IMG/VR virus record: IMGVR_UViG_3300033508_000294
Coordinates: 1 to 35,596 of that record
Source of the DNA: a virus
Reading direction: 5' to 3' (one strand)
DNA length: 35,596 bases
Part shown: positions 1 to 1,167 of the stretch, one piece after another
Layout: every line of letters starts with the position of its first letter
Numbering within the stretch: position 1 is the stretch's first letter
Made by a program: the position numbers and the translations under genes
The notes under the pieces: model-generated
Database searches by the model: none
The model's input: the letters and a program-made list of their open reading frames with translations, nothing else
Told to the model about the DNA's origin: nothing

Positions 1-1
1 A

Positions 2-400
2 ACCGATAGAAAATTTGCAGGCTCTGATACACTTGCAACTAGTTATGCAATTTCTTTTGCTGTTAAGAAATTAGCACCTTTCCACATGGTAATTTGTGGC
101 CGCCAGGCTATAGATGGAGATACAGCTCAAGTAGGTCCTCAAGTGGCTGAAAAATGCGAAATTAATCAAGTTACTTACGCAGAAGAAATTATTTCAGTAG
201 AAAACAACGAAGCCGTTATTAAACGCCGCTTAGAAAGAGGTATTGAAATCGTAAAAGCTCCATTCCCCGTATTAGTTACCGTTCATAGTTCTGCTCCAGA
301 ATGTAGATCTCGCAATTCTAAGTTATTGTTGAAATATAAACATGCTAGAACCATTACAGAACTTCAAGAAGAAACAAAATTATTCCAAAAATATTTATGA
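2..400 (+). CDS. etfB: electron transfer flavoprotein beta subunit, 3' part (5' end lies outside the window; possibly truncated at the 3' end)
   Basis: The frame is open from nt 2. Translation reads ...TDRKFAGSDTLATSYAISFAVKKLAPFHMVICGRQAIDGDTAQVGPQVAE..., matching the conserved EtfB core (FAGADTLATS ... CGKQAIDGDTAQVGPQ). The CRSRNSKLLLKYKHA tail resembles Bacteroidetes EtfB. GC content and codon usage (about 38% GC; ggc/cgc/cag codons) differ from the rest of the window. Only about 17 residues follow the KYKHA motif before the stop, fewer than in typical EtfB. Confidence 0.8.
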   Translation, partial: TDRKFAGSDTLATSYAISFAVKKLAPFHMVICGRQAIDGDTAQVGPQVAEKCEINQVTYAEEIISVENNEAVIKRRLERGIEIVKAPFPVLVTVHSSAPECRSRNSKLLLKYKHARTITELQEETKLFQKYL

Positions 401-1167
401 AAAACTTTAACCAATTTGTAAATGAGGGTATTAGAGATAAAATGTTACCTAAATCAGAAGATGAATTACAATCTGCTTATAATAATTTAATTAAAGATAT
501 AAATAATCCATTATCTACATATCCATATGGAATTAATAGGGAATTTCAAGAGATTGCCGATTTATTTAAACTAAATAAAAAAGATTTACATTTAATTACA
601 GAAGATAATGATAAATGGAATTTATTAGATGAATTATTTACAAAATATACAGAAAATATAGAGAATAAAATAATTGAAGTAAAAGAAACAGAAACAGAAT
701 ATGGTGGTGAATGGGTATGTTGGTCTGATAAAAAATTAGCATATTGGAATAGTAATGAAATAAATGATGTTAATGCATGGATATTCTATAAAAATGATTT
801 TGTAAATGAATCTATTAGAGATAAAATGTCACCTAAATCAGAAGAAGATATATTAAATTCTTTAAAAGGATTATCAACACATCAAAAATTAATGTTAGGT
901 TGTAAGAATGATAGTGTATTAGCAGTTAAATTAGTAATGGAAGAAGATGAACAAAAAAAGGATGAAGAAGATGAAAGTATCATACATATAGATGATGAAT
1001 GGCCACTTAGAAAAGCATGTAAGGAAGGTTCTCTTGAAGTTGTTAAATTTTTATTAGATAATGGTGCTGATGTCCATGCTTGTGATGATGATGCATTTTG
1101 GGTAGCAAGAGGAAATAGACCATTAATTAAATTATTAAATAGTTATAAGTATAAAAAAAAGAATTAA
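397..1167 (+). CDS. ankyrin-repeat protein with internally duplicated N-terminal module and CTS-like leader
   Basis: The C-terminal LRKACKEGSLEVVKFLLDNGADVHACDDDAFWVARGNRPLIKLL has the ankyrin-repeat consensus. The N-terminal MKNFNQFVNEGIRDKMLPKSEDEL is repeated at about residue 128 (KNDFVNESIRDKMSPKSEEDIL). The ATG overlaps the etfB stop (ATGA). Confidence 0.6.
   Translation: MKNFNQFVNEGIRDKMLPKSEDELQSAYNNLIKDINNPLSTYPYGINREFQEIADLFKLNKKDLHLITEDNDKWNLLDELFTKYTENIENKIIEVKETETEYGGEWVCWSDKKLAYWNSNEINDVNAWIFYKNDFVNESIRDKMSPKSEEDILNSLKGLSTHQKLMLGCKNDSVLAVKLVMEEDEQKKDEEDESIIHIDDEWPLRKACKEGSLEVVKFLLDNGADVHACDDDAFWVARGNRPLIKLLNSYKYKKKN

Follow-up and report, generated by a model that had tools for sequence, protein, structure and literature searches.

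How does a piece of a bacterial etfB gene come to stand, in frame and closed by a stop codon, at the head of DNA that otherwise looks like phage? The question is raised by the left end of the window, by which is meant the whole stretch of 35,596 nt analysed here. A preliminary description of this DNA had offered three explanations: an integration junction, a captured host gene fragment or an assembly chimera. The last of these is favoured here and the other two less so. On the sequence comparisons set out below, the left end of the window is likely, with a probability of about three in four, to be an artefactual in-silico join of two unrelated genomes at a shared 21-mer.

Position of the join and the two parents

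An exact-protein look-up of the 256-aa ankyrin ORF near the left end led to two contigs, L001 (ENA ERZ27248459, k141_300020, 3,793 bp) and L002 (JGI 3300033446, 1,762 bp), which are assemblies of the same AT-rich genome. Shorter pieces are present in ERZ27248456 and ERZ27248460. With these contigs as reference, the features of the left end are as follows.

1-358 (+): etfB internal fragment, Bacteroidales-type; frame from base 2; Pfam PF01012, E=7e-18
359-379 (+): overlap zone GAACTTCAAGAAGAAACAAAA, reading ELQEETK in frame in both parents; delimited by the phage identity and the etfB similarity
380-400 (+): native 3' end (LFQKYL and TGA) of a phage 336-aa ankyrin-repeat paralog; L001 857-1867, and L002
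396-425 (+): 30-nt exact repeat TATGAAAAACTTTAACCAATTTGTAAATGA, matching the start of the upstream paralog at L001 856-885
397-1167 (+): phage ankyrin-repeat ORF, 256 aa; Pfam Ank, E=4.9e-6

The first part had been taken for Bacteroidetes-like EtfB, and rightly so. Its match to PF01012 (ETF) covers profile positions 66-162, and its best relatives are from Bacteroidales/Bacteroidota MAGs, at 75-78% amino acid identity. The frame from base 2 reads TDRKFAGSDTLATSY...KYKHARTITELQEETKLFQKYL and ends at the TGA at 398-400; as had been counted, 17 residues stand between the KYKHA motif and this stop. Bases 1-358 correspond to residues ~90-208 of a 290-aa EtfB, the first 89 residues of which lie beyond the left edge of the window. 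The comparison set comprised 80 Bacteroidales/Bacteroidota loci with a genuine etfB, 69-78% identical to the fragment at the amino acid level; 75 of them align with it shift-free, and one further locus is offset by a two-codon insertion. EtfB residues ~90-215 align without gaps to the 75 genuine EtfBs, and the DTAQVGPQ and KYKHA motifs are both in the fragment. Where the window copy differs from Bacteroidales EtfB/FixA is in its fusion to the 3' end of a phage gene.

Across the 80 loci genuine EtfB follows the pattern ...KYKHAR T[IV]TELQEET[KR]DYTELY... and runs on to ...NHTIG. A genuine Bacteroidales EtfB reads ...KYKHARTITELQEETKDYTELY... and continues for another 75 residues beyond the point where the homology ends, well beyond the 30-40 extra residues that the preliminary description had expected. 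In the window this C-terminal part (...DYTELY...GLSGSPTKVK...NHTIG) is absent, its 75 residues being replaced after base 379 by LFQKYL and a stop. The reference full-length etfB (L012 2734-3606, 290 aa) is followed by a 340-aa etfA, whereas the fragment is followed by the phage ankyrin ORF, so that the etfBA operon order is also absent. Without the C-terminal 75 residues and without a downstream etfA, the fragment appears to fail as a functional etfB. The notion that EtfB is simply short in this lineage was rejected, all 80 homologous loci encoding ~75 more residues; EtfB lengths of ~200 aa among the cluster matches belong to partial or truncated records. The refuting test named in the preliminary description does not overturn the observation: full-length EtfBs do not end at the position where the window copy does, and the boundary holds.

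Base composition also separates the two parts. The GC contents of ~38% and ~25% given in the preliminary description agree with the measured values, 37.7% over 1-358 and 24.6% in the rest of the window. The compositional break is real, as no other 358-nt stretch in the remaining 35 kb reaches 37.7% GC (mean 24.7%, sd 3.7, maximum 36.6%), but it lies at 358/359-379 and not at ~395-400. GC3 is 0.22 in the etfB piece against 0.08-0.12 in the neighbouring phage ORFs. Both the GC and the GC3 of the piece fall within the range of native etfB from AT-rich Bacteroidales, and neither measure reveals a compositional shift toward the phage relative to native Bacteroidales homologues. The piece appears to come from a normal etfB of some AT-rich member of the Bacteroidales. 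Regression on native etfB homologues predicts a donor locus of ~34% GC, and the gap between this locus and the phage, at 24.6%, is thus ~9 points. A long-resident, phage-encoded EtfB was considered and rejected, there being neither compositional amelioration nor a phage precedent. No credible etfB was found in GenBank phages: 5 of 50,697 records match, all of them metagenomic or contaminated-looking and none a huge phage. Neither the etfB piece nor the first 12 kb of the window had a match in GenBank phages by blastn or megablast.

The join itself can be placed closely. Window bases 359-1585 (1,227 nt) are 100% identical to L001 and L002, the last mismatches being at 357 and 358, and the junction at ~395-400 had accordingly been set ~40 nt too far to the right. 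On the other side, nucleotide identity to the etfB loci is 0.60-0.76 over 1-358 (75 shift-free loci, codon by codon; 0.55 in the offset locus), mostly 0.5-0.86 over 359-379, and 0.10-0.33, which is random, over 380-421. The overlap is therefore limited on the left by base 358, where the phage has T and the window A, and on the right by base 380, the start of an Asp codon (GAY, at 380-382) in 80 of 80 etfB loci and of TTA in the window. Bases 359-379 would be the only stretch attributable to both parents, with a shared length of at most 21 nt, and the join probably lies somewhere within them. A break at the TGA/ATG overlap was rejected, because phage identity already begins at base 359.

The 21-mer GAACTTCAAGAAGAAACAAAA is present in a single copy in the window. 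The peptide ...TELQEETKDY... occurs verbatim in 6 of the 80 genuine etfB loci and, from protein conservation and codon bias, the donor etfB presumably carried the 21-mer exactly. Searches of 5.8 billion protein clusters and of the GTDB representative genomes did not turn up the donor etfB, the best match being 78% identical at the amino acid level. A breakpoint within an in-frame stretch of seven codons common to two unrelated genes speaks for an identity-guided event and not for random ligation. Sequence identity is thus likely to have guided the join, whether in the computer, in the tube or in the cell.

The phage partner

The native arrangement is preserved in L001 and L002. L001 857-1867 encodes a 336-aa ankyrin paralog ending ...EHINELQEETKLFQKYL before its stop, and L002 has the same 3' part. 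Upstream of the stretch shared with the window, both contigs thus carry this paralog, with its end ...INELQEETKLFQKYL and stop, and no etfB; the window is without the 5' 969 nt of the paralog gene. The preliminary description had correctly noted the overlap of the stop (TGA, 398-400) with the start of the ankyrin ORF (ATG, 397-399), and the same ATGA overlap between the 336-aa paralog and the 256-aa ORF is found in the unfused contigs. It had gone astray in reading the stop and the last residues, LFQKYL, as the tail of a truncated EtfB, for in L001 and L002 these are the phage gene's own C-terminus. The supposed EtfB tail, the TGA and the ATGA overlap are thus how a phage gene natively ends. 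Between L001 and L002 there is no difference over 1,762 nt (100% identity), and both may stem from one sample, in which case the unfused site would represent one population only.

The AT-rich DNA had been called phage-like, and its gene content bears this out. The main features beyond the ankyrin ORF are the following.

1583-4063 (-): major-vault-protein-like ORF, 826 aa; Pfam MVP_shoulder, E=1.6e-26, and Vault_3
4974-5537 (-): tail tube protein; PHROGs phrog_45, E=6e-9, and phrog_32623, E=7.5e-17
5700-9131 (-): tail sheath, 1143 aa, huge-phage type; PHROGs phrog_34521, E=2.2e-78
21807-22769 (+): C5 cytosine DNA methylase; E=2.4e-45
25820-26422 (+): dUTPase-like ORF; E=2.5e-7
30749-34792 (+): 1347-aa ORF without any Pfam or PHROGs match
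34789-35235 (-): gamma-glutamyl cyclotransferase/AIG2-like protein; E=3e-15

Other PHROGs matches in the AT-rich part are to a peptidase, a DNA polymerase fragment and endonuclease VII, and a BRCT/HhH protein is also encoded there. The ORFs scanned with Pfam and PHROGs yielded neither a terminase nor a capsid gene. Huge phages often carry many tRNA genes, and none was found in the 35.6-kb window. Read with the standard bacterial code, the window gives long, closely packed ORFs, and nothing suggests that stop codons are recoded as in Lak-type phages.

The two most informative proteins both point to huge phages. The best tblastn matches of the sheath are to LR756501/03 (735 kb), at 49% identity over 96% of the query, followed by LR745206 and LR756502/04 (634-642 kb) and then by Lak Prevotella megaphages at 32%; overall, sheath identity is 45-49% to the 634-735 kb phages and 35% to LR756500. 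The MVP-like ORF is 50-52% identical, over 97-99% of its length, to proteins of LR756500 (462 kb) and LR756501/03 (735 kb), and it is a homologue of the eukaryotic major vault protein, its residues 449-780 matching PDB 4hl8_A (E=9e-16). The best matches of both proteins are thus in uncultured phages of 462-735 kb. The genomes LR756500-LR756504 and LR745206 were placed by Al-Shayeb et al. in the 'Mahaphage' clade (PMC7162821); the word 'vault' is absent from the text of that paper (Al-Shayeb et al. 2020). The AT-rich part probably belongs, on these similarities, to a Mahaphage-like tailed phage whose nearest relatives are huge phages. It shares with the Mahaphage clade, Lak phages included, a very low GC content and many ORFans. 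It differs in that the sheath and MVP-like genes are 1.6 kb apart in the window and far apart in LR756500/501, and in that the window spans only 35 kb. Bacteroidetes hosts have been predicted for all genomes >634 kb and for the Lak phages (PMC7162821). The term 'host-like', applied to the etfB piece in the preliminary description, is therefore plausible at the level of the phylum, the nearest huge phages being among those with such predictions.

Known sheaths match the 1143 residues of the window's sheath ORF only in the C-terminal part (~650-1140) and leave the ~650 N-terminal residues uncovered.

Origin of the join

The alignments show directly which two parents are involved, where they overlap and over how many bases at most, and how the unfused phage is arranged; an in-silico origin of the join is what we infer. 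One partner would be an AT-rich Bacteroidales bacterium contributing etfB (bases 1-379), and the other a huge, Mahaphage-like myophage from the same community (bases 359 onward). Both genomes would happen to contain the A-rich 21-mer that encodes ELQEETK, and a k-mer or overlap-based assembler would have crossed from one to the other by way of it; close by, a tandem array of paralogs would already have been tangling the phage graph. The 'truncated EtfB' ORF would then be nothing other than the etfB frame read through into the last codons and the stop of the ankyrin paralog.

The length of the overlap fits such a crossing. The lowest k in the default k lists of both MEGAHIT and metaSPAdes is 21, and the contig name of L001 (k141_...) is MEGAHIT-style. 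The number of k-mers common to the phage part and 0.48 Mb of Bacteroidales DNA decays 0.285-fold with each added base, so that among chance matches of at least 21 nt a length of exactly 21 is the likeliest (~70%). Even with this 0.48-Mb sample a 19-mer is shared, and the extrapolation is to ~290 shared 21-mers per Gb; 21-mer collisions between the 35-kb phage part and Bacteroidales DNA are therefore to be expected. In addition, the 30-nt paralog repeat lies ~20 nt from the join, and a low-k assembly graph is thus likely to be tangled at this point.

The left end resembles k-mer chimeras in metagenomes in several ways. Two unrelated genomes meet within a short exact word that both can carry, and the foreign part is short, stands at the edge of the sequence and has a repeat array adjoining it; the difference is that the donor's exact 21-mer is here deduced, from conservation of the protein and codon preference. 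As would be expected of a chimera, other assemblies are without the junction: L001 and L002 are unfused, and the fusion was found in no collection searched. In a search of 5.8 billion protein clusters, no relative of the fusion protein exceeded 77% identity, and no exact-sequence record was found for it, for the tail tube protein or for the MVP-like protein. A search of IMG/VR and JGI metagenome contigs with the junction, an etfB-only 32-mer and a phage-only 40-mer returned L002 only, and the contig of the window itself turned up in none of the collections. Two points weigh on the other side. A shared k-mer normally breaks a unitig instead of fusing two paths, and a mis-join therefore needs additional errors of pruning or path choice. 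Furthermore, the match in phylum between the donor and the predicted host would be expected from a mis-join only in proportion to the abundance and AT-richness of the Bacteroidales, whereas a genuine event between phage and host would predict it. On the side of the chimera, benchmark studies put the chimeric share of viral contigs of at least 10 kb at up to a few percent (PMC5610896).

The same 21-nt homology could have served as a switching point in the tube, during MDA or PCR, with the hybrid molecules then assembled faithfully. The join does lie at a short shared sequence, where amplification chimeras are known to form, and read support, if any, would be accounted for in this way. However, any one such chimera is infrequent and will rarely prevail in the consensus of a contig, and the coincidence with k = 21 would go unexplained, all of which makes this origin highly improbable. 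A real junction, arising by capture or integration in a Bacteroidota host through the 21-bp identity, is unlikely when its two forms are taken together. In the first, which is quite doubtful taken singly, a huge phage infecting a Bacteroidales host would have undergone short-homology or illegitimate recombination with it across the 21 nt of identity, and a host segment with part of etfB would have replaced the 5' part of the ankyrin paralog to leave a recent, non-functional in-frame fusion. Such an event would suit the clearly homology-guided, in-frame join, the tandem paralog array as a plausible recombination hot spot and, being very recent, the absence of compositional amelioration; the donor phylum, Bacteroidota, is moreover the predicted host phylum of the Mahaphage and Lak phages (PMC7162821). 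It is harder to reconcile with near-identical phage contigs that carry no fusion, with the failure to find the fusion in any other collection, and with a fragment that is useless as a gene and belongs to a family lacking precedent in bona fide phage genomes. A length of exactly 21 nt, moreover, coincides with the smallest k that common assemblers use by default, whereas nothing singles it out in vivo.

The second form, in which the phage would have integrated within a Bacteroidales etfB, makes the 21-bp core part of etfB (attB) and of the 3' end of the ankyrin paralog (attP), and the left end of the window an attL junction; L001 and L002 would then be the free, unintegrated phage. A core identity of ~21 bp is within the usual range of att sites and fits well enough, as does the sudden change, within a short stretch that the two partners have in common, from a gene of core metabolism to phage genes. 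The testable feature of this reading is an integrase near attP, and here it appears to fail: no integrase or recombinase was matched by Pfam in 30 ORFs across the 35 kb of the phage side, and none is present in the 1.8 kb of L001 upstream, beyond the putative attP, which holds a candidate receiver-domain protein and paralogs. Insertion would also have destroyed etfB without restoring its 3' end, and the target gene is indeed unrestored in the window. Comparison with related genomes lacking the insert, recommended in the preliminary description as a way to find the empty site and its direct repeats, gave the unfused site in L001 and L002; the window has no tRNA gene, and no att-like direct or inverted repeats were found in it. 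The ~9-point difference in GC between the phage and the predicted donor locus is a further objection. A switch from bacteria-like genes into phage genes is a criterion for calling prophages, and the donor phylum is the same as the predicted host phylum (PMC7162821). However, a single prophage was reported among the sequences >200 kb of Al-Shayeb et al. (PMC7162821), and the phage of the window is of this huge type, for which there is almost no record of lysogeny. Integration is thus very unlikely.

The etfB-phage fusion is best filed as a contig-quality problem and not as a real feature. Should the join be artefactual, what it teaches concerns quality control: accepted as it stands, the 358-nt etfB piece would give rise to a false 'auxiliary metabolic gene', to a false host or prophage call for a huge phage and to a fictitious EtfB-ankyrin fusion protein, and the phage gene's own stop, together with the ATGA overlap, lends the fusion the look of a tidy gene. 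If it is true, it would be a physical link between a Mahaphage-type huge phage and a Bacteroidales host, and hence direct host evidence, and it would mean that a huge phage integrates or acquires host genes through short-homology recombination at a 21-bp identity.

The tandem paralog array beside the join

The phage genes at the join belong to a tandem paralog family, with members at L001 300-854, 857-1867 and 1864-2634, the last of these being window 397-1167 (+). No match to the family was found in GenBank phages, including the huge phages LR756500-LR756504 and LR745206. The paralogs have in common the N-terminal motif MKNFNQFVNEG(I/V)RDKM(T/L/S)PKS(E/K)DD, which is kept as a 75-nt DNA repeat, and at least two members, the 336-aa and the 256-aa proteins, have ankyrin repeats in their C-terminal halves. 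Just before the array, L001 1-303 (+) encodes a candidate response-regulator receiver domain (...ILMDVYMPIMDGREAAKTIK...), recognised by eye. The 256-aa ORF contains a second, internal copy of the N-terminal motif at window 799-848, as if two units of the family had been fused.
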